Below, piece by piece: positions 5,642-62,874 of a stretch of DNA of 64,000 nt. The stretch spans positions 1,440,001 through 1,504,000 of the forward strand of contig AP024596.1 of NCBI GenBank assembly GCA_019704295.1, read 5' to 3'. The DNA is from Sulfolobales archaeon HS-7. Its GTDB lineage: Archaea; Thermoproteota; Thermoprotei_A; Sulfolobales; Sulfolobaceae. Position numbers and translations under genes: made by a program. The first letter of the stretch is position 1. Each line of letters opens with the position of its first letter. Under the pieces are notes generated by a model. The model saw only the letters and a list, made by a program, of their open reading frames with translations. It had not been told where the DNA came from and made no database searches.

Positions 5642-8409
5642 GTCTCAAAACCTGGTAGGAAGGCTACAAAACCGTTTGTCGGAAACTTCTCAGGAATGCT
5701 CTGGCTGGCTTTAAGCCGTCATAGGAAAGCTACAAACTATTCTCCTAGAAGCGAGTATTTCAAACAACTGACTAGTTTCAAGCCCTCATAGGAAAGCTAC
5801 AAACTCCTCGAGGAAATCGAAGAAAAACCAAACACATGGGGTTTCAAGCCCTCATAGGAAAGCTACAAACCATATCGTGATTTATACAAATACCTACAAG
5901 CATAGGGAGTTTCAAGCCCTCATAGGAAAGCTACAAACGATTATGAGGATATTGATTACTGCGATTTCGAGTAGTTTCAAGCCCTCTTAGGAAAGCTACA
6001 AACATGATACAAATGAGCGCTATACCTAGTATTCCGTCTTGAGTTTCAAGCCCTCATAGGAAAGCTACAAACCGCTCCCTCTTTGCCAAGCAGTTCCATA
6101 ACCCTATCTCCGTTTCAAGCCCTCATAGGAAAGCTACAAACCCAATACACATCTATCAAACCATGCAACATCGACTGGTTTCAAGCCCTCATAGGAAAGC
6201 TACAAACTCGCAAAATTATAGATTAATTGTAAATTTGTAATTTTGTTTCAAGCCCTCATAGGAAAGCTACAAACCAACCTGGTTGCTGAGATCAGGCTCG
6301 TGTACAACGGGTTTCAAGCCCTCATAGGAAAGCTACAAACGCGTCTTACCGAGATATGCGGTCGGAGCAGGGAATGGTTTCAAGCCCTCATAGGAAAGCT
6401 ACAAACCATGAGTTGGTGCGCCGGGCTCAACATATACAGCGAGTTTCAAGCCCTCATAGGAAAGCTACAAACTCGCATCTTGCACGCACTGAACAGTCAG
6501 TTCATCCTCAGTTTCAAGCCCTCACAGGAAAGCTACAAACACAGAAGAGGCAACTACTTGACCCAAAAGCGAAATAGGTTTCAAGCCCTCACAGGAAAGC
6601 TACAAACAGTGGCAAGACGTGAGGACTTTTGCGACCTAGTATCGGTTTCAAGCCCTCACAGGAAAGCTACAAACTATGAGAACATGCTGCAGGCAAAGAA
6701 AGCGGGAGAGAGTTTCAAGCCCTCATAGGAAAGCTACAAACCAATTCCGTAATTTGTATTTATGCCAGTTGGAACGGGTTTCAAGCCCTCATAGGAAAGC
6801 TACAAACAAGGTAGCCGGAAGGAAATTGGACGAAGTGGAGAGGTTTCAAGCCCTCATAGGAAAGCTACAAACGTACTCGTCTCAATGGTCTAAATATTCC
6901 AGATCAGAGTTTCAAGCCCTCATAGGAAAGCTACAAACAATATGTGTTATTAGCCCTAATACCATGGGAGACCTAGTTTCAAGCCCTCATAGGAAAGCTA
7001 CAAACCGTTAGGACCGACGCAACTTGTTCGTTCACACTAGAGGTTTCAAGCCCTCATAGGAAAGCTACAAACGCGTTACAAATTTTCCTACTAATCAAGA
7101 TGTAACTGGTTTCAAGCCCTCATAGGAAAGCTACAAACCAGGTTGGAGAAAAGGATTTTGGATGGAATTATACAGTTTCAAGCCCTCATAGGAAAGCTAC
7201 AAACGAATCCGGCGAATTTGAATCACCACGCCCCTGGCGTCAGTTTCAAGCCCTCATAGGAAAGCTACAAACTGATGAGGACATTTCAGAAGAAGTTGAC
7301 AGAATAGCCAGTTTCAAGCCCTCATAGGAAAGCTACAAACCCTCAGAGGGTTGATATAGGATGAGGATAAATTGGAGTCGTTTCAAGCCCTCATAGGAAA
7401 GCTACAAACTAATATAGCAATATATAATATACCTATATAGGAATATGTTTCAAGCCCTCGTAGGAAAGCTACAAACTTTTCGCCTTTCTCCATAAAACTA
7501 TCGATCTGTTTTAGGTTTCAAGCCCTCATAGGAAAGCTACAAACATAAGGAGGGGGTTTGAATTAGTCTCTACCAGGGATGTGTTTCAAGCCCTCATAGG
7601 AAAGCTACAAACCATTTATTCCATTTATTGCTGTCGATGATACGGCTAGTTTCAAGCCCTCATAGGAAAGCTACAAACTTAGCCGAAGCTGAACCAAATG
7701 AATTTGTGCGTATGAGTTTCAAGCCCTCATAGGAAAGCTACAAACCGAAGAGAAGGAAGAAACGCATTATTGAAAAAATTTGTTTCAAGCCCTCATAGGA
7801 AAGCTACAAACGAAAGAGTGAGGCTAGTTATGAAACGGTTATAGAGCAGGGTTTCAAGCCCTCATAGGAAAGCTACAAACGTAACAGGAAATTTTCCCGT
7901 CAATTTTACATACTATCAGTTTCAAGCCCTCATAGGAAAGCTACAAACAATTTTACATATTTACCCAAAATATTTCCGTAATTGTTTCAAGCCCTCATAG
8001 GAAAGCTACAAACATTTATAAACGAACGTAAACCGCCCATTACCGTATTGTTTCAAGCCCTCATAGGAAAGCTACAAACCAACATTAAACCGATAATATG
8101 ATGACCCGTATACGTTTCAAGCCCTCATAGGAAAGCTACAAACGTATTACACCTGCAGATCTAATTGCGTATATATCGAGTTTCAAGCCCTCATAGGAAA
8201 GCTACAAACCCGTATGCCGATTCAAATTCATACCAATATGTACACTGGTTTCAAGCCCTCATAGGAAAGCTACAAACAATGGTGTGCAACTATCGGTGAA
8301 CTATACGACCCCGAGTTTCAAGCCCTCATAGGAAAGCTACAAACGCGGACCACGATGCCTTTTACATCTACTTCTATTTGTTTCAATCCCTCATAGGAAA
8401 GCTACAAAC
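5642..8409 (-). CRISPR. CRISPR array 1: about 40 repeats plus 2 degenerate trailer repeats
   Basis: Repeat reads GTTTCAAGCCCTCATAGGAAAGCTACAAAC on +, with 34-39-bp spacers. Degenerate copies at about 5642 and 5708 and the leader on the right imply minus-strand transcription. Confidence 0.98.
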
Positions 8410-12908: not shown

Positions 12909-15900
12909 GTTTGTAGCTTTCCTATGAGGGCTTGAAACTAAGTACCGGCACCGATACTTTCACAGGATAGTATGGGTTTGTAGCTTTCCTATGAGGGCTT
13001 GAAACAGGTGTAGTGGTACTGTTGTACTCTGTGACCGTTATGTGTTTGTAGCTTTCCTATGAGGGCTTGAAACTGAAAGATGTGTGATATTGTAGAGGAG
13101 GATAGTCGGTTTGTAGCTTTCCTATGAGGGCTTGAAACATGTTCCTTGTCTAGAACGTAGTAAACTATATCGTTCGTTTGTAGCTTTCCTATGAGGGCTT
13201 GAAACCAGGAACGGGATTACTACTATTATTTTGAACAACAAGTTTGTAGCTTTCCTATGAGGGCTTGAAACTTTCAAATAGTTTCTTTATTATCTTCGGC
13301 TTATTTTCGTTTGTAGCTTTCCTATGAGGGCTTGAAACCGGTTTCAAGACATAGGATAATTATGAATATTATCGAATGTTTGTAGCTTTCCTATGAGGGC
13401 TTGAAACCCACATTACTGCTTTCTTCACTCAACTCTGCCAATAGTTTGTAGCTTTCCTATGAGGGCTTGAAACATTTTGCCCTCCCCCCTGGTACCTTCG
13501 GCAGCGTAAGTTTGTAGCTTTCCTATGAGGGCTTGAAACGGTTCATAAAGAAAAACGGAAAATTGGGGGCATTAAAGTTTGTAGCTTTCCTATGAGGGCT
13601 TGAAACTTCTATCACGATAGTCCTTATATTGTTCATCTGTAAGTTTGTAGCTTTCCTATGAGGGCTTGAAACAGTCCACAGTGTTCTTAGAAGTGCCTCT
13701 AACCCACGTTTGTAGCTTTCCTATGAGGGCTTGAAACAACTCTAAGTACTCATTCAATGGTAACTCTATTTCGGGTTTGTAGCTTTCCTATGAGGGCTTG
13801 AAACAGGTGAGAGGTACGAGTGATGTTCCGGACTGGGTCGGTTTGTAGCTTTCCTATGAGGGCTTGAAACTCACAAACCCCGCGTCCTTCCACAGATCTG
13901 CGTTCCACTGTTTGTAGCTTTCCTATGAGGGCTTGAAACGGTTAAGGGCGGTAGCCCTTATACAGCGAACGAATGGTTTGTAGCTTTCCTATGAGGGCTT
14001 GAAACTTTTTCCTAACAAGCCATGAGACCAAGTCCTCCTTGTTTGTAGCTTTCCTATGAGGGCTTGAAACAAAAAGTGAAAATTAAAATCTCTTTTATTG
14101 TGAAAAGTTTGTAGCTTTCCTATGAGGGCTTGAAACTAAATATAATGGATATCCTAAGTAGATGTTTTCATCAAGTTTGTAGCTTTCCTATGAGGGCTTG
14201 AAACCCAAAATAATACATGGGAATACTAGCATGGTGAAGGGTTTGTAGCTTTCCTATGAGGGCTTGAAACAATTTTCCAGGAGCCAGAACCAGCTCTGAA
14301 TATCTTGTTTGTAGCTTTCCTATGAGGGCTTGAAACAATTTTTCCGTAATCGTGAAGTTTTCACCCTGTACGGGGTTTGTAGCTTTCCTATGAGGGCTTG
14401 AAACCTATTTTGGGTCTCTGGGGAGGCTCTGCTGTTTCAAGGTTTGTAGCTTTCCTATGAGGGCTTGAAACTATATGAAACCAATTTCACGTTCATTTTC
14501 CTATAACCGTTTGTAGCTTTCCTATGAGGGCTTGAAACAAATTTTCTAAGTTTCACGAAACTGAGACAAATACAAAAGGTTTGTAGCTTTCCTATGAGGG
14601 CTTGAAACTAGATCTTCTTTAGTCCGTCAGCCTTACTATTTTTCGTTTGTAGCTTTCCTATGAGGGCTTGAAACTTCGCTATCGTGTGGATGTCTTTCGG
14701 CGTCGCCATGTGTTTGTAGCTTTCCTATGAGGGCTTGAAACTACCGTCCCTGTAGATACTCGTGAATGAATAGATCCAGTTTGTAGCTTTCCTATGAGGG
14801 CTTGAAACCTGGGGAGGCTGCCACACAATGAAACGTGTGAAATCGTTTGTAGCTTTCCTATGAGGGCTTGAAACCTGGGGAGGCTGCCACACAATGAAAC
14901 GTGTGAAATCGTTTGTAGCTTTCCTATGAGGGCTTGAAACTCTTCCTCCGAACTCTGAAGCGAATTGATTACTTCAGTTTGTAGCTTTCCTATGAGGGCT
15001 TGAAACTTCGCCGGGTCCCACCTCATCTTCAGCGATTTGAGGGTTTGTAGCTTTCCTATGAGGGCTTGAAACTAAAGTTACGTAAAAGCACGTAAAAGAC
15101 GTGTAACGTTTGTAGCTTTCCTATGAGGGCTTGAAACACTTTCAGAAAAGCATAAATATTTCCGATAACGTTTTGGTTTGTAGCTTTCCTATGAGGGCTT
15201 GAAACATTCGTTCAATTTCGGATACTAACTTCTCTCCTTCTGTTTGTAGCTTTCCTATGAGGGCTTGAAACGTGACATCTTTCAACCATCTGGAACGATC
15301 TCATCAGGTGGTTTGTAGCTTTCCTATGAGGGCTTGAAACTCATTTTCATCGAAAACAAAATACGCTTTCTTTTTCATTGTTTGTAGCTTTCCTATGAGG
15401 GCTTGAAACAACTAGGTGATGGAGTGAAGGAAAGGGATACGCTCTTGTTTGTAGCTTTCCTATGAGGGCTTGAAACAACGTTCAGCCTGCCACATTAGAT
15501 ATATAGCAGGAAATTGTTTGTAGCTTTCCTATGAGGGCTTGAAACCAAATCGGTGACTGATTTGGGTATATGACGCGATTCTGTTTGTAGCTTTCCTATG
15601 AGGGCTTGAAACTTACATATACCTTTCCAATGTAGTATTTTCTGTTCCAGTTTGTAGCTTTCCTATGAGGGCTTGAAACCTTTCGTTTTTCCCTAGTTGA
15701 CCGCACTCGAAATCGGTTTGTAGCTTTCCTATGAGGGCTTGAAACCATTCCGTTGTATAAGGGTCTGCCTAATCTCCTAAGAGCGTTTGTAGCTTTCCTA
15801 TGAGGGCTTGAAACCTAGAATTCTTTCCTCTATGTTGCCCCCTTCTTTTAGTTTGTAGCTTTCCTATGAGGGCTTGAAACTACATCCCGGGTAATGTGGG

Positions 15901-17547
15901 TTATCCCGGCAAAAATTAGTTTGTAGCTTTCCTATGAGGGCTTGAAACAAGTATGCCCTTATAATGTACGTTTCGCTATTCTCAGTTTGTAGCTTTCCTA
16001 TGAGGGCTTGAAACTTCCCGTTCAGGAAATCGCCCAGGGCTGTAAAATGGTTTGTAGCTTTCCTATGAGGGCTTGAAACCAGAACCAATTGGAGAGTGAG
16101 AATAATGAATGATATAGGTTTGTAGCTTTCCTATGAGGGCTTGAAACCAAATATTATCATATATTTCCCTGTATCCTTGTCAGTTTGTAGCTTTCCTATG
16201 AGGGCTTGAAACAATTTCACGGGAATTTTCATACCTAAACCGAACGGTTGTTTGTAGCTTTCCTATGAGGGCTTGAAACCTTCAGGTCAAAAATTGGGTG
16301 AATACCCGTTATGAGTTTGTAGCTTTCCTATGAGGGCTTGAAACCAGAACCAATTGGAGAGTGAGAATAATGAATGATATAGGTTTGTAGCTTTCCTATG
16401 AGGGCTTGAAACGTGGAGTTTTGGCAGTTATAGGTTTGGAATAGGTACTCCGTCTATGGGGTACCCTGGTGAACTTGAAACGTGGAGTTTTGGCAGTTAT
16501 AGGATTTTGGTATGACCGTTTGTAGCTTTCCTATGAGGGCTTGAAACCAGAACCAATTGGAGAGTGAGAATAATGAATGATATAGGTTTGTAGCTTTCCT
16601 ATGAGGGCTTGAAACCAAATATTATCATATATTTCCCTGTATCCTTGTCAGTTTGTAGCTTTCCTATGAGGGCTTGAAACAATTTCACGGGAATTTTCAT
16701 ACCTAAACCGAACGGTTGTTTGTAGCTTTCCTATGAGGGCTTGAAACCTTCAGGTCAAAAATTGGGTGAATACCCGTTATGAGTTTGTAGCTTTCCTATG
16801 AGGGCTTGAAACAAAAGTAGTCATATATTGATTGTCGGTCAAACCCATGTTTGTAGCTTTCCTATGAGGGCTTGAAACCCCGTACCCAGGTGTTGGGTTT
16901 TTGTTCAATCTCCTCGTTTGTAGCTTTCCTATGAGGGCTTGAAACAGATTAGCCCTAATCCTGCATGTCTGTTAGCGTGTGTTTGTAGCTTTCCTATGAG
17001 GGCTTGAAACCTACTGACACGAGAATGCAGAAGCTGGCTTTCCTGGGTTTGTAGCTTTCCTATGAGGGCTTGAAACCAGCACCAACAACTAACACGACTA
17101 TAGCAAGGACGAGTTTGTAGCTTTCCTATGAGGGCTTGAAACTCCATCCTCTTGTTATTAGTCCTTCTTTTGCCATTTCGCTGTTTGTAGCTTTCCTATG
17201 AGGGCTTGAAACACACGAATATAGTGGAGTTTACGGCACATGGGTATTTTGTTTGTAGCTTTCCTATGAGGGCTTGAAACCTAAAGGTGAACATGTATGC
17301 CACCGGGTGATGGATGTTTGTAGCTTTCCTATGAGGGCTTGAAACATCTGTCATTTCGCGATAAAAACGATAATAAAGTTAGTTTGTAGCTTTCCTATGA
17401 GGGCTTGAAACTTTCATCATACTGCAAAACTTTTCCTTCTTCTAACCTGTTTGTAGCTTTCCTATGAGGGCTTGAAACCTCTTCACTACTTCGATTAAAT
17501 GTGAATTTTTCACTTTTGTTTGTAGCTTTCCTATGAGGGCTTGAAAC
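12909..17547 (+). CRISPR. CRISPR array 2: about 69 repeats
   Basis: Essentially invariant GTTTGTAGCTTTCCTATGAGGGCTTGAAAC at about 66-bp period. Contains duplicated spacers and one aberrant unit at 16405-16517. Confidence 0.98.
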
Positions 17548-32923: not shown

Positions 32924-33156
32924 TTTTTATAGAATATTTTACTTTTTATTAAATTATATACTTATACTTCTTTGTTAATCCTGGATCCCGCATCTCTTAA
33001 GAAAAAGAGCTGGCTCTCGAGATATTGGCGAAAAACCTTACACTTTATCAATCCTAATATACCCGTATTAGGAACTCAATTTCAGAGTCCTTCGATTTAG
33101 GTAACACTTTGTTAATCATATTTAAGGTTTATCAATCACTTTCGCAATACAATTTT

Positions 33157-33410
33157 ATGGAAAGTAAGATTGAGAAACACAAGAAACCCTTCACAATTAC
33201 GCAGATCGTTTTGATGGTAATGGCTAAAAGTCTTGGAAGTGCTGTAGCTTAGAATATCTCACTGAGAAGACGTTGGTAGATAAAGACGAGTTGTTGGTCT
33301 ATCTGTCCAGGACGGCGCAGAGGGGTAGAGAGGAAGTGGCATAAGGAGAGAGCAGGAAAAGATAGGATGTATTGTCTGAAGTATAAGGAGGGAGATAATA
33401 TAAGTAAACC
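33157..33410 (+). pseudogene. plrA: plrA (Sulfolobales plasmid regulatory protein) pseudogene
   Basis: Across frameshifts it reads TITQIVLMVMAKS / CCSLEYLTEKTLVDKDELLVYLSR / ERKWHKERAGKDRMYCLKY, matching the PlrA (pRN1 ORF80-like) pattern. Confidence 0.75.
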
Positions 33411-33672: not shown

Positions 33673-36600
33673 TCAAAAAGGGGAATCCTTTTTCTGTCTA
33701 ACCTCGTCCAGTGTTAATATACCCTTGTCGATCAGAACATTAACGTGATCCCAAGCATGTGACCTAACGTATTCACTCGGTGATTCAAGAAGTGAGAGAA
33801 AATGGTCCTTTTTCTGTCTAACCTCGTCCAGTGTTAATATACCCTTGTCGATCAGAACATTAACGTGATCCCAAGCACGTGACCTAACGTATTCACTCGG
33901 TGATTCAAGAAGTGAGAGAAAATGGTCCTTTTTCTGTCTAACCTCGTCCAGTGTTAATATACCCTTGTCGATCAGAACATTAACGTGATCCCAAGCACGT
34001 GACCTAACGTATTCACTCGGTGATTCAAGAAGTGAGAGAAATGCCTTGGAATCCTCCCTCGTTAATATACCCTTGTCGATCAGAACATTAACAATACTCC
34101 AAGCACGTGACCTAACGTATTCACTCGGTGATTCAAGAAGTGAGAGAAAATGGTCCTTTTTCTGTCTAACCTCGTCCAGTGTTAATATACCCTTGTCGAT
34201 CAGAACATTAACAATACTCCAAACAGTGATGCAAACATACTCGTCAGTTGCGCTCAGCATCCTTAAGATTAGATTATTAAAATGTGATTTGTATGGAGAT
34301 TCACGTACAGATGTAAGCCGTGATTTAAAGTCTGGTTTGTTAATCACGCCAGCAATCGGCCTCATCATGACCTCAAAGGTCTGAATTACATCGGCTTTAT
34401 CAGAATATCTTTCCAAAAGATATGCTATTACTTCCAATATCTTGACCTTAAAATCTTCGTCACTGAAATATGGGACCACGGAAATAGCGTCGAAAAGGAA
34501 AGTCGAAACGTTATTTGGCCTGCTGAAATAACGTTGGTGATTTTTAATATAACTTTCTGAGTCTTTATAAATTTGGAGAATTAACCTCCCGTAACTATTA
34601 CACACTTCTTTTAGCTCTTCCCTAATTCTATTAAGGTATTTATCAAATTCCTCAAAATCAAAGTTCGTTTTTCCCAGCTTCGTTATTAAATTTTCGTGCC
34701 CTAATTCATCCTCTAATTTATCTGGGATTTCCTCGCCGTCTAAATACCCTACCAAAATATTGTATCCTTCCTTCACCGAGCCGTGGATAGGAGATAGTAT
34801 TCCTCGGTGGTCCATTCGGAAAAACGGGAAGAAAGCGTTAACTTCCCCATTCTCCACTCTTACTACTCCTACCGTACCCTCCTGTACCGTGTCCCTTTGT
34901 AAGGAGATTAGGGAATCCAGAGCACGGTAGAGTAGGGAACTTTCCGTATTAAGACCAACTAAGCTCAACCTCTCCTTGTCAACAGCAGCGATCGGTACTC
35001 CTTTGCTTTCCAACATAGCCCCCAGTAGGGCAAGAATTAGGAGGAATTCCTTCTTACCACTTTCTGTTTCTAGGGGAATGTCTCCATTTTTAAAGTAAAA
35101 CTGTTGAATCTTCCTAAAGGCATATGTTTTAGGGTTCCGGTCTATTTCGTCTAGGTCTTCTTCGCTTATGTTCTCCTTTCCCTCTAGAAAGTACCTTAAT
35201 ACTACAGGCAGTCTGGCCCTCTTCACTATTTTTCGCTTCAACTCATCACTGATTTTTATGTTCTCAGATAGCATACTCTCCAGAATCTTCATTAATTCGT
35301 CTTCATTCGTGTTAATGCGGATTTCCTTGAACAGATTCCCCCGCTCCCTCAGTTTTCTCCATAAATCCCCCTTATGCAGATCTGCGAATCCCATCTCAGC
35401 TTTCTCCACAACGGATCTCCACATCGTCTCTTCCGTTGTGATGAGAATCGGACATTCCGCGTTGCCCTCTATAAACGCTTCATGTAGGACATTGGTTAAA
35501 TGTTCCTGCAACATGTTCGTGGTAACTCTACCGTCATCTAAAATTAAAAGGCACTTCCCATCCCTGGAGGGAGGATATTTAAATGTCCTTGGATCTTGGA
35601 TCGAATAAACCACAAATTTTCCTCCAGTTTCTCCTTCCGCTCTCTCCATCAACTTTTTCACGACGAGATAGGAGAACCAGCTCTTTCCCACTCCTGAAGG
35701 ACCTATTACGGCATAAAATAGGGGATTTCCCCTAAAGGTGGAGAGTTCTGATAAAGTATGTTTTCTCCAGCTGAGGATCTCATTGGCCAGTTCATTGACT
35801 TTCTCTTGCTTAATCTCAACTAGAGTTTCTTCGTTTACACCATAATATTCCTTAATTGAGTCCTTATCCTCTGGTTTTAACCCGGCTTGCTTAATTTGTC
35901 CCTCCTTGAGCCTGTTTATTTCCTCTTCATGCTTTTTTATTTCCTCTTCATGCCTGTTTATTATTTCTTCGAGTTTATCTATTCTTTCCTTTATCTTCTT
36001 GACCTCGCTCTCAAGCTCTGGCACTTTCCTTATGACTTCGTTCAGCTTCTTTATGTAATCCTCGGTAAAGATCTGCTTAAGTCTAGACAAAAACTCATCG
36101 TACCCCCCTCCCGGTCCCACAGGGGATAGCCAGCTTGAGAGGAAGCTGTAGCAGTCCCCGGGGTTGAGGCCGTATTTCTCGTCCAGTTTCTCGCACAGGA
36201 TCTCCCTCTTCTCCACCGGATATTCGTTCCAGGCCTTGTGTAGCTTTACGTACTTTCCAAGACCCGCGTCTTTCCTCTCCTCGTAAAAGCTAAGTATTAA
36301 TGACACTCCGAAGAGTATTACTGATGCTGGCAATAAAAATTCCGAGATAAGGCGAGACAGAGTAGGTAACAAAGGCCCCTTAAGGTATTCCAGGGTTTCG
36401 CCTAAAGCTCCCATCCCTTCGGAAAGGCTTAAACCAAAGGTCTCAAGCAGAAGCTCTTCCCTATGTCTCTCAAGTTCTTTCAATTTTTCAAGGATCTCTT
36501 CGCTTTTGCCAGCATGCTCTTCGATTACTCTCTCCAGAAGAGGTGGTATCAACAACCCATTACCCTCTAGCGGGGAGCCACCAAAGCTGGCCAGCTCAAG

Positions 36601-37992
36601 GAGGTGACACCTCTTTCTCCTTAGCTCTTCCTCGCTGAGGCCGGTTTCTCCCCTACGCTTGTCGGCTATCTTCTTTAAAAAGTACTCGAAAAGCCCTTCG
36701 GCGTCCTCTTTAGTAATCTTCGACTCGACAAGTACACTGCCTTCAGGGATCCAGCTTCTCTTTTCTTCTTTACCCTTTTTTCCAAAGACACGATTGAGTA
36801 GATCTTTTCCAAAGATAGGATTATGTAGATCCCCCCTCTTTTCACCCTTTAGGAACCGGATCTGGTAGTTGCTCCCCTCTATTAAGACCTTCCCGTGTAA
36901 TCTGTCCTTTATCTTCTCTGCGTAACCTTCGTCCATAGAGTAGTAGGGAAGTTCAACGTAGGAGTATTCTTCTGGAAGGATTCCCTTCTTCCTCGCCCTA
37001 AGGATCGCCATGGTCTTACCGGAATAACGATGACCAAAAAGGACCACGGGCACTCCTCTCTCCTTAGCTTTTTCCAAAGCTTCCTTCAGACTCGCGTCTA
37101 CGCTCAGCTCTACTCCGTAATCCGCGTAGTTTGGAAGGTCCTTAAATCCCTTACTTTCCCTCAAATAGACCATCAGCTCCTTGAGGAACTCTGAGGAAGT
37201 CTCCGGAATTGTTACCGCTTCCTCGATGTTCTTCTCTCCTCCAGGATGCACATCAAATGTGGGGACGTCCCCCAAGGCTTTCTTTACCTCTTCGTAAACA
37301 ACCTGCAGATCCTTATCTCTGAAGCTGTGCCCCACGACCAACAGGGGTACTCCGATGATGTGTCCCTTCATGCTGATGTAGATGGCTTCTCTATCTTCTT
37401 CAAATGACTTCAAGTCGTCCTGGGTGAGGACAATTTGTTTACTTTTTTCTTTGTCCTCTTCGTATATGTCGCCGTGAACCTTGTAAATCCTGATGTAGGC
37501 GTCAGTAGGTTGAGAGAAGTCGTCTTTGCTCTTTACCACGGTGTATCTCGTCGAGCCTTCATCTAATTTATCTTTAAGGGCGTCCTCAAGCTCCCGATCG
37601 AAGTTCGTTGTTATGATGTTGACTGTCAAGTGTTTCCCCTCTCTCTTCCAAGACTCTACCAAGGCCCTCAAGATTCTGGCCAGTAAAGAATAAGGATTCC
37701 TGAGGGAATCTCTTTTTAACCCTTCTTTCCTCTTCTTATCGAATATCTCCCTTATCTTTTTAATAATGTCTTCCCTCTTCACTCCCTTGTCGATTATATC
37801 CTTTACGACCGATTCAAGGTCTCCTGTCTGGACGTCGAATTCCTGGGCAAGGGCGGAGGCGAGCTCGTAGCTGAGAGGATAACCTAGCTCATAAGACACT
37901 TCCGCCCCTATAATTATTGTAGCTCCTCTTTCAGTGAGTAGATCAGCAAATTGCCTTACCTCAAGGGATACCACATCATACATATTTCGCAT
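33673..37992 (-). CDS. SIR2-like domain, two P-loop NTPase regions and C-terminal HEAT/ARM-like repeats (putative defence protein)
   Basis: IIIGAEVS, IITTNFD, YKVHGD and VVGHSFRD (SIR2_2-like); GHRYSGKT; coiled coil; GPSGVGKS with LLILDD; 40-aa repeats. Confidence 0.88.
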   Translation of the reverse strand: MRNMYDVVSLEVRQFADLLTERGATIIIGAEVSYELGYPLSYELASALAQEFDVQTGDLESVVKDIIDKGVKREDIIKKIREIFDKKRKEGLKRDSLRNPYSLLARILRALVESWKREGKHLTVNIITTNFDRELEDALKDKLDEGSTRYTVVKSKDDFSQPTDAYIRIYKVHGDIYEEDKEKSKQIVLTQDDLKSFEEDREAIYISMKGHIIGVPLLVVGHSFRDKDLQVVYEEVKKALGDVPTFDVHPGGEKNIEEAVTIPETSSEFLKELMVYLRESKGFKDLPNYADYGVELSVDASLKEALEKAKERGVPVVLFGHRYSGKTMAILRARKKGILPEEYSYVELPYYSMDEGYAEKIKDRLHGKVLIEGSNYQIRFLKGEKRGDLHNPIFGKDLLNRVFGKKGKEEKRSWIPEGSVLVESKITKEDAEGLFEYFLKKIADKRRGETGLSEEELRRKRCHLLELASFGGSPLEGNGLLIPPLLERVIEEHAGKSEEILEKLKELERHREELLLETFGLSLSEGMGALGETLEYLKGPLLPTLSRLISEFLLPASVILFGVSLILSFYEERKDAGLGKYVKLHKAWNEYPVEKREILCEKLDEKYGLNPGDCYSFLSSWLSPVGPGGGYDEFLSRLKQIFTEDYIKKLNEVIRKVPELESEVKKIKERIDKLEEIINRHEEEIKKHEEEINRLKEGQIKQAGLKPEDKDSIKEYYGVNEETLVEIKQEKVNELANEILSWRKHTLSELSTFRGNPLFYAVIGPSGVGKSWFSYLVVKKLMERAEGETGGKFVVYSIQDPRTFKYPPSRDGKCLLILDDGRVTTNMLQEHLTNVLHEAFIEGNAECPILITTEETMWRSVVEKAEMGFADLHKGDLWRKLRERGNLFKEIRINTNEDELMKILESMLSENIKISDELKRKIVKRARLPVVLRYFLEGKENISEEDLDEIDRNPKTYAFRKIQQFYFKNGDIPLETESGKKEFLLILALLGAMLESKGVPIAAVDKERLSLVGLNTESSLLYRALDSLISLQRDTVQEGTVGVVRVENGEVNAFFPFFRMDHRGILSPIHGSVKEGYNILVGYLDGEEIPDKLEDELGHENLITKLGKTNFDFEEFDKYLNRIREELKEVCNSYGRLILQIYKDSESYIKNHQRYFSRPNNVSTFLFDAISVVPYFSDEDFKVKILEVIAYLLERYSDKADVIQTFEVMMRPIAGVINKPDFKSRLTSVRESPYKSHFNNLILRMLSATDEYVCITVWSIVNVLIDKGILTLDEVRQKKDHFLSLLESPSEYVRSRAWSIVNVLIDKGILTREDSKAFLSLLESPSEYVRSRAWDHVNVLIDKGILTLDEVRQKKDHFLSLLESPSEYVRSRAWDHVNVLIDKGILTLDEVRQKKDHFLSLLESPSEYVRSHAWDHVNVLIDKGILTLDEVRQKKDSPF
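33686..34220. repeat. Near-perfect intragenic tandem repeat (120-bp units, one 108-bp unit)
   Basis: Sequence lines starting 33721, 33841 and 33961 are identical except for one base; about 4.5 units. Confidence 0.95.
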
Positions 37993-44007: not shown

Positions 44008-44037
44008 GTTTCAAGCCCTCATAGGAAAGCTATAAAC
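44008..44037 (-). CRISPR. Orphan repeat, probably the distal end of array 3 cut off by the plasmid insertion
   Basis: GTTTCAAGCCCTCATAGGAAAGCTATAAAC, one mismatch to consensus, same orientation as array 3. Confidence 0.9.
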
Positions 44038-44201
44038 CCGGGCCATAGGCATAAGAGACTAGATAATGTTCCAATAAAATGTAAAAAAACGCTTTGTGTT
44101 GCATATTTAAACTGAAGTAGAACTAACATGTGAAAGAAAAGTAGAATAGAATAATAGCAGAAATCGGTCAGCGTTTCAAAGCATTAACTCCTTAGTTAAC
44201 G

Positions 44202-44471
44202 CTAAATGTTGATTTCCTCAAGCCTCATCATGCTTACGCAGTATAATCTTATCCTTTTCCCATTTGGGGTCCTAAGCCCTCTTCTCGTTATGTGATCCTC
44301 TTTAGCTAGTCTACTTAGTACTACCTTAGCATTGTTTTCATCTATATTTACATCTCTACAAATTTCGTCAAGCGTCTCACAGTTGTTTCGTGCTAAGTAA
44401 AATGGTATAATTCTCCACATGTTCATATCATAATTTAGGCTAGGTAGGATTACAAAAATGTTACCCTTCAT
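44202..44471 (-). CDS. plrA: PlrA-like plasmid DNA-binding protein (true start probably later; may be decaying)
   Basis: CETLDEI...NAKVVLSRLAKE..I.R....GKRIRLYC matches the PlrA pattern. Confidence 0.75.
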   Translation of the reverse strand: MKGNIFVILPSLNYDMNMWRIIPFYLARNNCETLDEICRDVNIDENNAKVVLSRLAKEDHITRRGLRTPNGKRIRLYCVSMMRLEEINI

Positions 44472-44650
44472 GGAGACGTGGAAAACCGCTTTCCCAAACC
44501 CTTTTTAGTAGGATTACAAATTTGTAACACTCTCACTATTAACGCAAGAGTCTGCCCAAACGAGAGAAAAATCAGGGATCCGGGCAGGATTAATTATCTA
44601 TCTTCTAGCGATTATACTGGAGATCATAAAATTTTCTAAAAGATGAAATT

Positions 44651-45724
44651 TTACTCTGAAACTTCAACGACTCTCCTTCTTAGAAGTGTCTCAGCTACTT
44701 TATCAGTTATTATTTTAATTAAATCTTCAACACGTGACTTATCTACTATAAATTTCTTGTTCTGCTCATCAAATTCTACTTTTAACTCCCTTTGAGTTTT
44801 ATTTTCATATTCATTCTTTACTTTTTCTATAATCTTAGGGTCGGTATTTAGATTTTGTTCGATTTCGGTTATGCCATTTTTTACAACTTTGTTTAGATTC
44901 CTTAATTGTAATGGGTCTACCTCTCTCAAACCTCTTTCGAATGCATCCGCGTTATCAACAATATTTATTACCTTTTTAAAGTTTGGCTCCTTCTTCAAGT
45001 TATTTATATAATAATCAACAAGCATTTTCTTAAAATTACTATCCTTTTGAAACTTCGATAGCGTAAAAATGATTATCTTACCTTTATAATATGTGAACAG
45101 AATATTCTTTTCTAGAATTATATAATCCTTAATATTTACTGCTTCGTAGGTGTCTTTAGACTTAAAAAAGTGTAAAATGCTAAGGTTTTTTAAAATAATA
45201 TTTCTATCAAATTTACTAAATATTAATATGTCATCCCCGCCTTCATCACTAAGTTTGAATGCTACATATTTAGTATTCTTCGTGTCGTTCTCCGGGCTAA
45301 ACTTTTCGTCAGTAGGAGGGTTCGCATTCTTGATCATTTGAATTAATTTCATAATATCACTCTCAGTATTATAGGATCCACTCTGTTGAGAAGTATTTGC
45401 TTGAATTTGAGAAGCAGCTTGAATTTGGGGGTCAGAAGATAAAATATCGAGATCTATATAGCATGGTTTTTTAGACTCAAAGTCAGCACATTCATTAATA
45501 ATATTCTCTTTTTCTAGTTTTGTAGATATTTTTTCTCTTATGTAAATAAAATTATTCCTACTTCCTCTCTCAATATTTATATACTTAGCTTCATATGTTA
45601 CACCTTTATCACTTACTCCTCCTTTAGTTCTTACAAAGAAGTATATTTCCTTGAGTTTATCTTCTAAATCAATTTTATTAGTAGCCTCGACTAAATCTTT
45701 TCCAGAGTAGCCCTCTTTGTTCAT
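44651..45724 (-). CDS. kwaB: Kiwa KwaB-like (DUF4868-like) protein
   Basis: 357-aa soluble AT-rich ORF directly downstream of the KwaA-like gene; size and C-terminal LIKIITDKVAETLL resemble KwaB. Assignment rests mainly on context. Confidence 0.6.
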   Translation of the reverse strand: MNKEGYSGKDLVEATNKIDLEDKLKEIYFFVRTKGGVSDKGVTYEAKYINIERGSRNNFIYIREKISTKLEKENIINECADFESKKPCYIDLDILSSDPQIQAASQIQANTSQQSGSYNTESDIMKLIQMIKNANPPTDEKFSPENDTKNTKYVAFKLSDEGGDDILIFSKFDRNIILKNLSILHFFKSKDTYEAVNIKDYIILEKNILFTYYKGKIIIFTLSKFQKDSNFKKMLVDYYINNLKKEPNFKKVINIVDNADAFERGLREVDPLQLRNLNKVVKNGITEIEQNLNTDPKIIEKVKNEYENKTQRELKVEFDEQNKKFIVDKSRVEDLIKIITDKVAETLLRRRVVEVSE

Positions 45725-45731
45725 TAACCTC

Positions 45732-46319
45732 TTATTCTTTATACTTTTTGTCTAAATAAATATTCTGATATAGGCGGAAAACTTCAACTATTTTACCCTC
45801 CTGTACCATCCCCTCATATATAATATAGACCGATCTGTTATGCTCCTGTACCTTCACCTTGTAAACTCTATAACCACTTATGAAAAGAATAGGGTTAAAG
45901 AGGAGCACTTCGCTGTTCTTGAATAATTCATATATAAAAACCATAATTAAGAAAAAGACTACTAGTCCATATATGTTGGCTTGGAATGTAGATATTAGCC
46001 CAAGTACGTAACTCATTATGACATTAGTATAGTTAATACTTAAGTCTTCTACCTCGGTAATGGTATATTTGAAAGATTCATCATTTCTGTTAGAGCTCAA
46101 GAACTTAAAGTAAAGATAGTTAGAAACAACTAACCATAAAATCACTATTAAGTAGATTATTAGAATTAGAATCCATGGAATTTGTAAGCTAAAGTTTTCT
46201 ATTGTAAATCTAAGCGAAGATGTTAGAATATACCTAAAATAATTTATCATAACTGCTATAAATAGTAATGTATACTCGCTTGTAAATAGTGCCAATGAAT
46301 TTAAATCAACCCTAGTCAT
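45732..46319 (-). CDS. kwaA: Kiwa KwaA-like membrane protein
   Basis: 195 aa with four hydrophobic segments, a YVLGLI segment and the C-terminal LFNPILFISGYRVYKV motif (NPxLxxxGYrxY), typical of KwaA. Confidence 0.7.
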   Translation of the reverse strand: MTRVDLNSLALFTSEYTLLFIAVMINYFRYILTSSLRFTIENFSLQIPWILILIIYLIVILWLVVSNYLYFKFLSSNRNDESFKYTITEVEDLSINYTNVIMSYVLGLISTFQANIYGLVVFFLIMVFIYELFKNSEVLLFNPILFISGYRVYKVKVQEHNRSVYIIYEGMVQEGKIVEVFRLYQNIYLDKKYKE

Positions 46320-46759
46320 GGTGCTAATTACTCTCTGATCATATAGAGTAATAAACTAGTTTTAGTTGTGAATTTTCTCGCCACTAAATTGTGGGAGTTA
46401 ACAGAATTTATTTCACGTATCATTTTTGACGACTAGACATATCTACTCTGTTAGTTCAATTTTCCTAAATTAGATGAGAAAAATAGTAAGTCCCCACTAG
46501 TACGATAATGTCAATAACTAGAAGATATACTGTAATCATGGATAGTGCAAAAAGTCTTGTATCCCAATCCGTGTATTCGTCACTTACAATATCGTCAGGA
46601 AGTACTATAGATATTCCGGAAATATCTAGAATTATAATAAATTCCATTGGGTTCATTATTTCATCTCAGTGGGCAAGAGCATTTCGTATTACCAGTAACG
46701 TGTTGAAAATCTGTAATTCCTCTACTGTAGGCAAAATCTTTATAGGCAGCTTATAGTTT

Positions 46760-47593
46760 CCGTCTCTTTCATTATCTTTATGACCCTATTCTCCAGGTCT
46801 ATTTGATTCATCTTAAGCGAGAATACTTCTCCTACCCTGAGCCCACTCTACGCCAATAATAGGAAGACAGGCTTAGTCCCTAAATGGTCTATGCTATCGA
46901 ATATCTCCCTTAAAGTCTCTAGAGAAAGCGGCTGCGGTGTTGTATCTGTACTTTGACTTAGGCACTTTGAAGGAATTATGAAGTAATTGAGCTAAGTGTA
47001 AGTTCTTTTCTCTTATAATAGTCTTAATAAATAACTTTAGGGAATAGCAGCATGCCTAGCTATATTGTTGCTTTCTTCAACCTAGTTCAGCTAATAGGTC
47101 CCGGAACCTGTCAGGGTTCAATTCATATCCTAGCCTTGTAACTCTAAGCCTTAAATACCTCATCCTCATAGCCATCGTACTCTTACTCTTGCCCTGGAGT
47201 GATTTTTCGAACTTGTTTACATCATCTTCAGTAACAATATACGTAGAAGATACATTCTTCAGATAACCTCCTAAACATTGATAGAGAATTGAGACAAAGA
47301 AATTACGGAACTTTTCGTCTTTCATCGCTTTTATAACCACTGACAAGGCAGTCGTAACGTCTACTTCCACTAATTTCAACCCGTAAATAGCATCTGAAAG
47401 TTTATCTGGTGCCGGCATATCTGCAGCCTTTCTTACTACCTCCAAAGGATATTCTGGTCCGTGTTCACGTACCTGAATAGAGTACTCCTACCTACTCCTG
47501 ACTGCTTTGAAGCTTTTGCTAGCCTAGTTCTTCTTCTACTTTCTTTAGTATCCTCCTCCGTTTCTCATCTAATTTTGATACGTCAATTAGCAT
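46760..47593 (-). pseudogene. pNOB8-type tyrosine integrase pseudogene (frameshifted, C-terminally truncated)
   Basis: MLIDVSKLDE..., GVGRSTLFRYVN (HTH), LSVVIKAMKDEKFRNFF, ...GLRVGEVFSLKMNQIDLENRVIKIMK. The distal catalytic HxxR/Y region is missing. Confidence 0.88.
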
Positions 47594-47703
47594 ATTTCTC
47601 TATCCTACTTATAAGAAAGTGACGCTTTTCCAAAAATAAGGTTTTGTGTTTTACTTACGCCTTTATAAAGAGAACGCGACGTACTTTCAATTTCAGGGAG
47701 AAT

Positions 47704-47747
47704 TGGTGCCGCGGCCGGGATTTGAACCCGGGTCACAGACTTGAGAG
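47704..47747 (-). other. att site: 3' half of tRNA-Glu(CTC), not a full tRNA
   Basis: Minus strand reads CTCTCAAGTCTGTGACCCGGGTTCAAATCCCGGCCGCGGCACCA (anticodon loop, T arm, acceptor strand, CCA). No 5' half; lies just upstream of the integrase. Confidence 0.88.
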
Positions 47748-47765
47748 AGCTTATTCGTTTTCTGA

Positions 47766-49386
47766 GTTTCAAGCCCTCTTAGGAAAGCTACAAACTGCAA
47801 ATATAGCGAAGTTTGTGGAGTCTGGAAAAATCCTCATAGGAAAGCTACAAACCAGGGGCGTGACCGTTGAACTCCGTAGACTGCGTGTTGTTTCAAGCCC
47901 TCATAGGAAAGCTACAAACGAGCCGAAAAGTATGATCTTCTTTATGGTCTCATTCTGTTTCAAGCCCTCATAGGAAAGCTACAAACAAATAAAGGAGATA
48001 GTCTGTTATGGTTAAAGTCCTAACTGGTTTCAAGCACTCATAGGAAAGCTACAAACGGTTCTATCTTGAACAATTAAGCTATATTCACACTGTTTCAAGC
48101 ACTCATAGGAAAGCTACAAACGGTTCTATCTTGAACAATTAAGCTATATTCACACTGTTTCAAGCCCTCATAGGAAAGCTACAACTAGCCCTTCTTTTGC
48201 CATTTCGCTTAAGTCTTTTTCGTTTCAAGCCCTCATAGGAAAGCTACAAACTTAGCAGGAGTATACGTTGGACATATGGTAGGATGGTGTTTCAAGCCCT
48301 CATAGGAAAGCTACAAACTCGTGCCAAAAGATCTAGAAGTTTTTCTGAATTTGGTTTCAAGCCCTCTTAGGAAAGCTACAAACAATGTAATGCATGTAAT
48401 TACACGACATATGATTATCTAGTTTCAAGCCCTCTTAGGAAAGCTACAAACCTCTAAAGAGTTGGAGGAATAGCGTAATGTGTCCTGTTGGTTTTAAGCC
48501 CTCTTAGGAAAGCTACAAACGTCCAATGCGTACAAGGGACAGGAACCGGCGGCATAGTTTCAAGCCCTCTTAGGAAAGCTACAAACATTTTACGTTTTTT
48601 TCACAAAATGATAGATTAATTGGTTTCAAGCCCTCATAGGAAAGCTACAAACATGTACACTATTGCTCTCGATTACTTAATACAGGAGACGTTTCAAGCC
48701 CTCATAGGAAAGCTACAAACATATGAAAGTGCTATATGTCGGATATCTATTTTTTTGTTTCAAGCCCTCTTAGGAAAGCTACAAACTTTTTGAAATTGTG
48801 GAGAAGGGCGATATTGATATACGTTTCAAGCCCTCTTAGGAAAGCTACAAACCAAATTCTTGTGAAACAGGCAAAAATATCGGTGGAATGTTTCAAGCCC
48901 TCTTAGGAAAGCTACAAACACAACTAATCTTCCACCGCTCTATGTGGAGGACGCTGGTTTCAAGCCCTCTTAGGAAAGCTACAAACACATAGGTGTGATC
49001 ATGCCGTTGCCCGGTCTTGCTAGTTTCAAGCCCTCTTAGGAAAGCTACAAACACATAGGGTGTTACGATCTTTCTGTTTTTGAAGCTGGTTTCAAGCCCT
49101 CTTAGGAAAGCTACAAACTCTTAGAAGCACAGCAGAAGATGTACCAGGAGTACTGTTTCAAGCCCTCTTAGGAAAGCTACAAACTCGGAAGCATAACGCT
49201 ATAGTAACTCTGCCATTCTTCGTTTCAAGCCCTCTTAGGAAAGCTACAAACTCGGTAATTAATATCGGTCCAGTGTCTTTCAGCGTTTTAGTTTCAAGCC
49301 CTCTTAGGAAAGCTACAAACTGATACTAAGGATAAACTAATGATTCAAATTCATAAGTTTCAAGCCCTCTTAGGAAAGCTACAAAC
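47766..49386 (-). CRISPR. CRISPR array 3: about 25 repeats, one truncated at about 47832
   Basis: Same repeat family; leader-proximal copies carry CTCTTAGG instead of CTCATAGG. Leader on the right. Confidence 0.97.
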
Positions 49387-49560
49387 ACTCATTGTTTTGT
49401 CCTTTCTCATTCATAAATTTTTCGGTATCAAATTCGGCAATCTCGCTCTCCCTAGAGGTTACGTGAGGTTGCCGTCGATAATTTACGTCTAAAAATATAT
49501 GTTCTGTTATACATATTTTGGTATTACGTGGGGTTGCCGAATTCTTGTATGAGATAAAAA
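49387..49560 (-). promoter_or_regulatory. Leader of array 3
   Basis: Near-identical to 8410-8583. Confidence 0.92.
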
Positions 49561-49896
49561 ATGAATAAAAAGCTAAACAGAATAAATACCTCCGAACAGA
49601 TTTATTACTCTCCTAAGGTAACGTCCAATCCAACTACACTAAGTCAGACCTTAAGGGTTAAGCGAAAATTTCTCATGAGTCAGAAATAACATGCCTAACT
49701 CCATGGATGACTAGCAATAACAGTTCAGGCGTGCTTCATATCCAAACTAATTACCTTAACCTTTAAGGTCTAACCGACATAACGCTAATAACTTAATAAA
49801 GTAAAAAGTTACAAAACATATTAGCCTGGCCTGAACCGTCATTGAAACGTGATAAAGTACCGAAATATTGTTATATTAGTAAACTGAATTAATTAT

Positions 49897-61647: not shown

Positions 61648-62874
61648 ATGAAGATCCTTATCTCCTCAATCGGAGACCCTAGATATGACGAGGTGAAGTA
61701 TCGCCTAGAAGACAAGGAATATCAGAGCAAGTTTTCAGGTGAGGCTATTTATCAGGCGTTTAACCCCGACGTAGCCATAGTAGTCGGACAGTACACCTTA
61801 GCTCATAAGTCAAGCACACCCACGAATTACGCCGATTTAAAAGAAAATTCTGAGAAATACATCAGAGAAAAACTCAATTTATCATCACAGTGGAAGGTGA
61901 TAGTTTCACCCGGCGTGTACGGTTACTCCGATGGTTGGAGTTACGTAGGGGAAATATACAACTTCTACGCGTATACCCTATACGAGCTGTATGGCATGCT
62001 CCTCAATAAAAGGGAGGACTTGGAGGTATTCCTCGATATAACTCACGGAGTCAACTACATCGGTTACCTAACTGCCAGTGCCGTACAGCAAATTCTTGAC
62101 GCCTATTCAACAGGTTTCAACGTTAGGCTCAGATTGTTCAACTCAGATCCTCATTACAAAAGCGAGAGTAAGATGGTATCGCTTTCACTTAATGAGATAG
62201 TGAACAGGGAGGTGAAACCAGCTTTCACCTACTCAACATTAGAGCAAAACGTCCTTCGTCCCGCCAGATTCTTGTCTAAAGAAATGAAGGAGGATATAGG
62301 GAAGAGGATATCCAAGGAAATTCCAGGTGAGGTAGACGACCTCTACTTAATTAACGCGATTAACTCCGGCGCACTGCTTGCAGCTTATGAGTTAGCCAAG
62401 GACTTCGGAGAGGTTATAAAAAAGAGCGTGAAACTATTCGAGGAATACGTTCATGTAGAACAGAAAAGTGTTTACCAAAAGGTAGCTTTTACGTCAAAGT
62501 TCGAGTCGTTGATAATCGCCAGCATATTGAGGGAGATCTCATTGGGGGATTTTAAAGGAGATGTGACAGTCTCAGAACTGTGGCGAAAGGCGAATCAAAT
62601 CTACAGGTACAGGGATATGCAGAGAACAATTATTAATAATGAATTGTATGAAATAAAACAAGAAGTAGAAAAGGCAACGAGTACGGTAACTCAAGATGGG
62701 TGGGAACCTCTATCGAATTTCATCAAATCGCAAGAGGAACCTGACAAGAGAACTTTCCTAGCCCATGCGGGATTACCAGGTTCCTTATGTGAGGTTAAGG
62801 TCGAAGATAAGGAGGTCAAGCTTAGATATAACCAAAAGGGTAAGGAGCGGATCAGAAATTACCTAAGAATTTAG
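61648..62874 (+). CDS. csx1: Csx1 CARF-HEPN ribonuclease
   Basis: SSIGDPRYDEVKY, LDITHGVNY, LFNSDP and HEPN motif RTFLAHAG. Confidence 0.92.
   Translation: MKILISSIGDPRYDEVKYRLEDKEYQSKFSGEAIYQAFNPDVAIVVGQYTLAHKSSTPTNYADLKENSEKYIREKLNLSSQWKVIVSPGVYGYSDGWSYVGEIYNFYAYTLYELYGMLLNKREDLEVFLDITHGVNYIGYLTASAVQQILDAYSTGFNVRLRLFNSDPHYKSESKMVSLSLNEIVNREVKPAFTYSTLEQNVLRPARFLSKEMKEDIGKRISKEIPGEVDDLYLINAINSGALLAAYELAKDFGEVIKKSVKLFEEYVHVEQKSVYQKVAFTSKFESLIIASILREISLGDFKGDVTVSELWRKANQIYRYRDMQRTIINNELYEIKQEVEKATSTVTQDGWEPLSNFIKSQEEPDKRTFLAHAGLPGSLCEVKVEDKEVKLRYNQKGKERIRNYLRI

Follow-up and report, generated by a model that had tools for sequence, protein, structure and literature searches.

A conjugative-plasmid remnant in a CRISPR array of Sulfolobales archaeon HS-7: a well-supported case of att-site insertion into an att-derived spacer

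The Interrupted Array and Its Setting

The Sulfolobaceae genome of Sulfolobales archaeon HS-7 (2.15 Mb, a single contig) contains four CRISPR arrays. Here, we focus on a window of 64,000 nucleotides (contig AP024596.1, positions 1,440,001 to 1,504,000), in which a 3.7-kb insert of plasmid origin separates the terminal repeat of a type I-B array from the one before it (Table 1). Coordinates refer to this window unless they are given as genome positions. The window encodes a type I-B module (cas3, cas2, cas4, cas1, cas8b, cas7, cas5, and cas6) and a type III-B module. Csx1, with CARF and HEPN domains (61648-62874, plus strand), is an ancillary nuclease of the latter.

One 30-bp repeat is common to all four arrays, and the leader, recognized as a flank that is nearly identical at all of them, lies on one side. 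In the interrupted array the leader starts at 49387, which places transcription on the minus strand. Because the leader lies at the other end of the array, the repeat at 44008 is the terminal one and the interrupted spacer is the oldest. To the left of 44008 no further repeat was found, and a possible degenerate repeat there scores no better than shuffled sequences. An initial annotation of the locus, made from the letters alone, had described the array as split; this goes too far, as the insertion broke the oldest spacer and moved only the terminal repeat away.

Across the four arrays, 139 of 147 spacers measure 35-39 nt, and nearly all fall within 35-40 nt. The protospacer-adjacent motif (PAM) of the system is TTN, as read from six of the seven best spacer-protospacer matches (83-92% identity; shuffled spacers reach 77%). 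The spacer at 7477 (array 5642-8409) and others match pB12E5 (35/38), pNOB8, the integrase of pHVE14, STIV, STIV2, SIRV2, SBRV1, and SRV, with a PAM that reads TTN. Spacer-repeat units are tandemly duplicated at 48027-48156, at 16050-16812, and at genome positions 1373874-1374471; among these duplications, the array at 12909-17547 has a whole multi-spacer block in repeated form. Beside the insertion, the repeat at 47823 (unit 47796-47852) has lost its first 9-10 consensus bases, which shortens the unit to 57 bp.

Table 1. Features of the interrupted array and its insert (window coordinates).
Feature	Position	Strand	Remarks
Terminal (trailer) repeat, type I-B array	44008..44037	-	Differs from consensus at one position; 3.7 kb away from the other repeats; leader at the opposite end
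Left att core copy	44038..44058	-	13-bp arm of the tRNA 3' side (probably spacer-derived), 7-bp anticodon-loop overlap (44051-44057), and 1 bp
attP arm of pKEF9/pYN01/pAH1 type	44059..44200	-	72-79% over 150-210 bp to pKEF9, pHVE14, pAH1, and integrated copies
Decayed conjugative-plasmid repeat motif	44184..44199	-	Second at about 46385-46401; the pair brackets plrA and cargo
plrA-like plasmid regulator	44202..44471	-	Pfam PF05584 above cut-off; 42% to pAH1 PlrA
357-aa open reading frame in kwaB position	44651..45724	-	Three relatives only (47-57%); adjoins kwaA where context was read
kwaA-like membrane protein, intact	45732..46319	-	12 PADLOC KwaA models, best E 4e-11
Hydrophobic open reading frame, 63 aa	46465..46656	-	No matches in profile searches
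pKEF9-type tyrosine integrase pseudogene	46750..47593	-	Catalytic C-terminus deleted
tRNA-Glu(CUC) 3' half from plasmid attP	47704..47748	-	Holds right core copy (47728-47748) with loop (47741-47747)
PAM-proximal 17 nt of the putative original spacer	47749..47765	-	attP arm of pNOB8/pB12E5 type
Main array, 25 repeats	47766..49386	-	Degenerate repeats cluster at the insert end
Leader of the interrupted array	49387..49586	-	Near-identity among the four arrays of the genome

The Insert Is a pKEF9-Subgroup Element Opened at Its Attachment Site

The insert is a remnant of a Sulfolobales conjugative plasmid of the pKEF9/pAH1 type. It matches Sulfolobales plasmids in two pieces, one of which begins at the first base after the left repeat. 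In pKEF9, pAH1, pMGB1, pARN3, pHVE14, and pYN01 the same two pieces are adjacent and overlap in the plasmid attachment site (attP), where the arrangement is int-attP-plrA. In the insert the arrangement is att-plrA...int-att, a circular permutation at attP relative to all six plasmids. Two matching pieces that adjoin each other in the plasmids identify the insert as a pKEF9-subgroup element opened at attP.

The calls of plrA and of an integrase remnant made in the initial annotation hold. The remnant shares 74% of its amino acids with the Int proteins of pKEF9 and pAH1, contains frameshifts and stops, and lacks residues of about 282-419, the catalytic third. At 64 of 557 otherwise invariant columns the sequence has changed, compared with 9-12 in four live plasmids. 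The int gene is not split by the attachment (att) site, which lies upstream of its start as in the plasmids. Transfer genes are absent, conjugation and replication genes have been lost, and the genome contains a single copy of the insert. Relatives also have att-bounded remnants a few kilobases long. The decayed repeat motif is weak evidence on its own, with four mismatches and 0.65 occurrences expected by chance per 3.7 kb. Its positions coincide with near-perfect motifs in a homologous cassette of S. tokodaii, and pKEF9 has about 14 copies.

The Ends of the Insert Collapse to a Normal Spacer

Both ends of the insert carry a 21-bp core, and the positions assigned earlier to the repeats, the two cores, and the adjoining 17 bp proved accurate, as did the match of the cores at 16 of 21 positions. 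The repeat on the right side occupies 47766-47795. A match of at least 16/21 at one fixed position has a chance of 2.3e-7, and genome-wide this score is reached at only five places, four of which are att or tRNA-Glu(CUC) sites. The transfer RNA (tRNA) half on the right had been assigned to tRNA-Glu; it agrees at 44 of 47 positions with the host tRNA-Glu(CUC) gene (genome 2094107-2094153) and has the same CTCTCAA loop. When the two cores are merged, 38 bp are left between the repeats, a normal spacer length as the initial annotation had stated. The left core is att-derived and the ends carry an att duplication.

This duplication of 21 bp (16 identical) is shorter than the usual 40-50 bp, probably because the spacer included just a portion of the tRNA half. 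A further three bases agree with the end of the repeat. The target, that is the chromosomal attachment site (attB), is not a tRNA gene: the window contains none, the 5' side consists of a plasmid-type arm and a repeat, and no tRNA is rebuilt.

The two arms belong to different plasmid subgroups. Beyond the left core the arm is of pKEF9 type, and the 17 bp beyond the right core are of the pNOB8/pB12E5 type, with 14/17 matches to pNOB8 (P about 3e-6). This arm was compared with about 60 att and tRNA sites, and high scores came only from pNOB8, pB12E5, and one chromosomal remnant. Hence the insert is not one collinear foreign piece that reaches both repeats. The rebuilt 38-mer matches a pNOB8 arm joined to the core of the host tRNA-Glu(CUC) locus at 33/38 positions, and the corresponding protospacer in pNOB8/pB12E5 attP is flanked on its 5' side by TTC, which fits the TTN PAM. 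Because length, PAM, and plasmid source agree, a real spacer is the simplest reading of the 38-mer. The annotation had taken the spacer to be aimed at the inserted plasmid or a relative. A relative it probably was; the invader itself is not matched, with 5/17 identities in the PAM-proximal part. Neither of the outcomes that would have told against an att-derived spacer was found, as the left core is not of unrelated origin and plasmid homology does not run as one continuous piece.

The host tRNA was considered as the source of the spacer and rejected, with 6/17 matches in the arm part. Because its PAM-proximal half mismatches the tRNA gene, the spacer would have been safe for the host. The host tRNA-Glu(CUC) has a D-loop intron and is miscalled as Phe by ARAGORN. 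Its locus (genome 2064028-2094201) harbors a resident 29.5-kb conjugative plasmid with an intact integrase open reading frame (genome 2092750-2094060; 436 aa; 82% to pARN4 Int). In tandem behind this element lies a pB12E5-like int/att remnant (86% over 625 bp), which lacks its far att end. Thus, the pNOB8/pB12E5 subgroup did infect this lineage. It is tempting to speculate that the broken spacer would have been directed against this lost att end.

Proposed Course of Events and Alternatives

Att-site insertion into an att-derived spacer is well supported by these sequence comparisons. A plasmid of the pNOB8/pB12E5 subgroup would have infected the lineage, and there are strong indications that the type I-B Cas1-Cas2-Cas4 proteins took up a 38-bp spacer across its att. 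Next to a TTC PAM, this spacer would have comprised 17-18 bp of plasmid arm, the 7-bp anticodon loop, and 13 bp of the tRNA 3' half. A pKEF9-subgroup element, opened in its attP core, was joined to the spacer within the shared 21-24 bp, which left two hybrid att ends. The crossover interval contains the 7-bp anticodon loop.

The plasmid's tyrosine integrase would have recombined attP with the spacer, which could serve as a secondary attB because the loop is present in it with 13 and 18 bp on its two sides. This is about the size of a tyrosine-recombinase core; loxP, for example, has 13 + 8 + 13 bp. We give catalysis by the integrase a probability of roughly three in four. The invader would have escaped cutting because its arm mismatches the seed of the guide. 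An anticodon mismatch does not keep pKEF9 from integrating at both tRNA-Glu genes (PMC4872121), and SSV1 Int cleaves at the loop borders and tolerates the use of secondary att sites (PMC8371274). The att of the pB12E5-like remnant carries TGGCC like the left core, and the right core carries TGACC like pKEF9, which would place the crossover on the loop side if the lineage of the remnant was the spacer donor. The int gene then decayed and the conjugation and replication genes were lost, presumably after insertion, leaving plrA and the kwaA-like pair. The element may have shrunk in place or have arrived as a small circle with an integrase acting in trans; the intact Int of the resident plasmid could act in this way.

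Several points weigh against this course of events. The two loop copies differ at 2/7 bases, which calls for drift after the event or for an overlap with mismatches; the region has decayed, as the changed int columns indicate. The crossover is localized only to 21-24 bp, and its narrowing to the loop side hangs on one base. Furthermore, a review of the subject gives no cleavage site for a pNOB8-type integrase. Finally, the uninterrupted allele was not found: no contig with the spacer appeared in the metagenome, viral, and GTDB scans. The metagenome scan for the right junction returned one contig, an unrelated chance match, and the viral and GTDB scans for the protospacer with a pNOB8 arm returned nothing relevant. 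A search for a sister genome via Cas2 found none, with the nearest protein (79%) in Sulfodiicoccus.

The main rival, which fits less well than an integrase, is recombination by the host, in which RadA or a microhomology-mediated process joined plasmid and spacer through the shared 21-24 bp. The product would be the same, and the three extra bases that match the repeat end would suit such a process. Few plasmid sequences are as conserved as the att core, which is therefore a likely place for homology across subgroups. Moreover, microhomology joining has been reported in S. islandicus (review PMC8708640), and recombination between a plasmid and a matching spacer has been proposed for SiL-E1 (PMC3718332). 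However, the shared sequence is short and imperfectly matched (16/21 now). Several other spacers show 80-92% matches to these plasmids, and all of them are intact, including those with 30-35 matching bases. The plasmid was also opened inside its att of ~45 bp out of about 30 kb, an outcome that an integrase predicts outright. Host recombination thus seems rather unlikely.

Capture of a giant spacer is considerably less likely still. Here, Cas1-Cas2 would have pasted a long piece from a tandem or cointegrate, with a pKEF9-type element sitting within a pNOB8-type att. Tandem integration is real in this genome, as the 29.5-kb element beside the pB12E5-like remnant demonstrates, kilobase-sized pseudo-spacers have been published (SiL-E1), and the correct PAM end would also result. 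But the far end, cutting the tRNA half in the middle of the T-arm, would by chance have to give a normal spacer of 35-40 bp on collapse. An assembly artifact that misjoined the array to an integrated element is the least credible explanation. The feature is known from a single genome, yet both junctions are unique sequence with a coherent hybrid att structure, the insert is single-copy, and a misassembly would not produce the matching PAM, the length, and the second arm type. We retain integrase-mediated insertion as the preferred explanation.

Cargo and Other Element Remnants

The insert had been annotated as carrying kwaBA. The kwaA assignment stands, whereas the 357-aa open reading frame beside it has no match to KwaB or any other family in PADLOC, Pfam, atlas, or profile searches. 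It has the place and size of KwaB and is conserved beside kwaA; the metagenome partner is called PF28043 KwaA. Its AlphaFold model (pLDDT 37) gives no usable fold. In S. tokodaii (STK_13050 region, L071:7860-10300), a kwaA-like pair lies between two plasmid repeat motifs and near a tRNA-fragment att remnant. This context suggests a mobile cassette of an archaeal Kiwa-like system whose second gene is unrecognized.

Other traces of plasmids are present in the genome. The piece at 33003-33404 is plasmid-like (78% to pB12E5). It lies beside a 1439-aa protein (33673-37992, minus strand) with an N-terminal SIR2-like domain (PF13289; ThsA-like match), likely a defense gene on another element remnant. 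Further remnants of plasmid att and int-upstream regions occur at genome positions 1950787-1951070 and 1819474-1819552, at tRNA-Arg(CCG) and tRNA-Asp.

Consequences for Immunity

The initial annotation saw in the insertion a route of CRISPR evasion. This reading is weak, given the 5/17 PAM-proximal matches of the invader's att and the effect on one spacer and the terminal repeat only. As the invader is not matched in the seed, evasion as the driver was rejected. The invader would have used a site stored against a cousin plasmid and had no need to escape this spacer. In addition, the leader-side copy (47728-47773) still reads as repeat handle plus a 38-nt sequence with 30/38 matches to pNOB8 attP, and a guide from it may not have been lost. 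The event resembles a single old accident more than a proven strategy of evasion.

Att-derived spacers might in principle be a recurring, self-inflicted weak point of arrays: a landing pad that the guide cannot defend, through which arrays capture cargo such as the Kiwa-like pair, as a general route across prokaryotes. Such generality is not shown and we consider it doubtful. A survey for att cores adjoining repeat ends in 46 other Sulfolobaceae genomes, one per species, gave no second case. All matches were tRNA genes or plasmid att arms and none lay in an array; as the search patterns were strict, rarity is shown only loosely.

As it stands, the case amounts to a single, decayed event that affected the oldest spacer and had little consequence for immunity. 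It nevertheless indicates that storing an att site may build a new attB, since a spacer has room for a tyrosine-recombinase core; we found no earlier description of this cost of CRISPR memory. It also offers a concrete, testable mechanism for some of the plasmid-derived stretches in archaeal arrays, the origin of which had been left unexplained in 2013.

Comparison With Known Systems

The closest relatives of the insert are the pNOB8-type (class II) integrase elements pKEF9, pAH1, pARN3, pHVE14, pMGB1, and pYN01 (PMC8371274, PMC4872121). They share with it the integrase family, the int-attP-plrA layout, the tRNA 3' half in attP, the integration geometry that leaves int intact, and the decay after integration. 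In contrast to these elements, the insert did not enter a tRNA gene and no complete tRNA is restored; its target was apparently written into the chromosome by CRISPR adaptation.

Plasmid DNA between two Sulfolobales CRISPR repeats has been described before. The SiL-E1 pseudo-spacer of S. islandicus LAL14/1 (PMC3718332) consists of conjugative-plasmid DNA, but it was described as collinear with the plasmid up to both repeats, with no att mentioned and the mechanism unclear. An 899-bp pNOB8-like piece in locus F of S. solfataricus (PMC4390879) also lies between two CRISPR repeats, and no att mechanism was given. In the two arrays examined of one genome, locus F (89 repeats, largest gap 106 bp) and a 7-repeat locus, we did not find this piece. 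Unlike SiL-E1, the insert studied here is permuted at attP, bears an att duplication, and is accompanied by residual spacer sequence from another subgroup.

Recombination of an att site into an array is known for phage PhiAP1.1 of Streptococcus pyogenes (bioRxiv 10.1101/2020.10.09.333658), and natural cases often lie at the terminal end. There, however, attB is 8 bp of the repeat and the normal target, and the immune effect was shown; here attB would be an acquired, unique spacer that served as a secondary site. In cyanobacteria, array-targeting Tn7-like transposons (PMC11837452) likewise land in a spacer and keep the repeats intact, as do insertion sequences within spacers (PMC4390879). They differ in their transposase chemistry, and their site is set by the repeat or by selection rather than by the spacer being a copy of att. 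An att-bounded element inside a Sulfolobales CRISPR-Cas locus has been found in csa3 of S. islandicus M.16.4 (PMC4390879), where a host gene is the target. Our search of the open-access literature turned up no description of an acquired spacer that acts as attB. The chemistry is known, and what is new is the origin of the target, a spacer.

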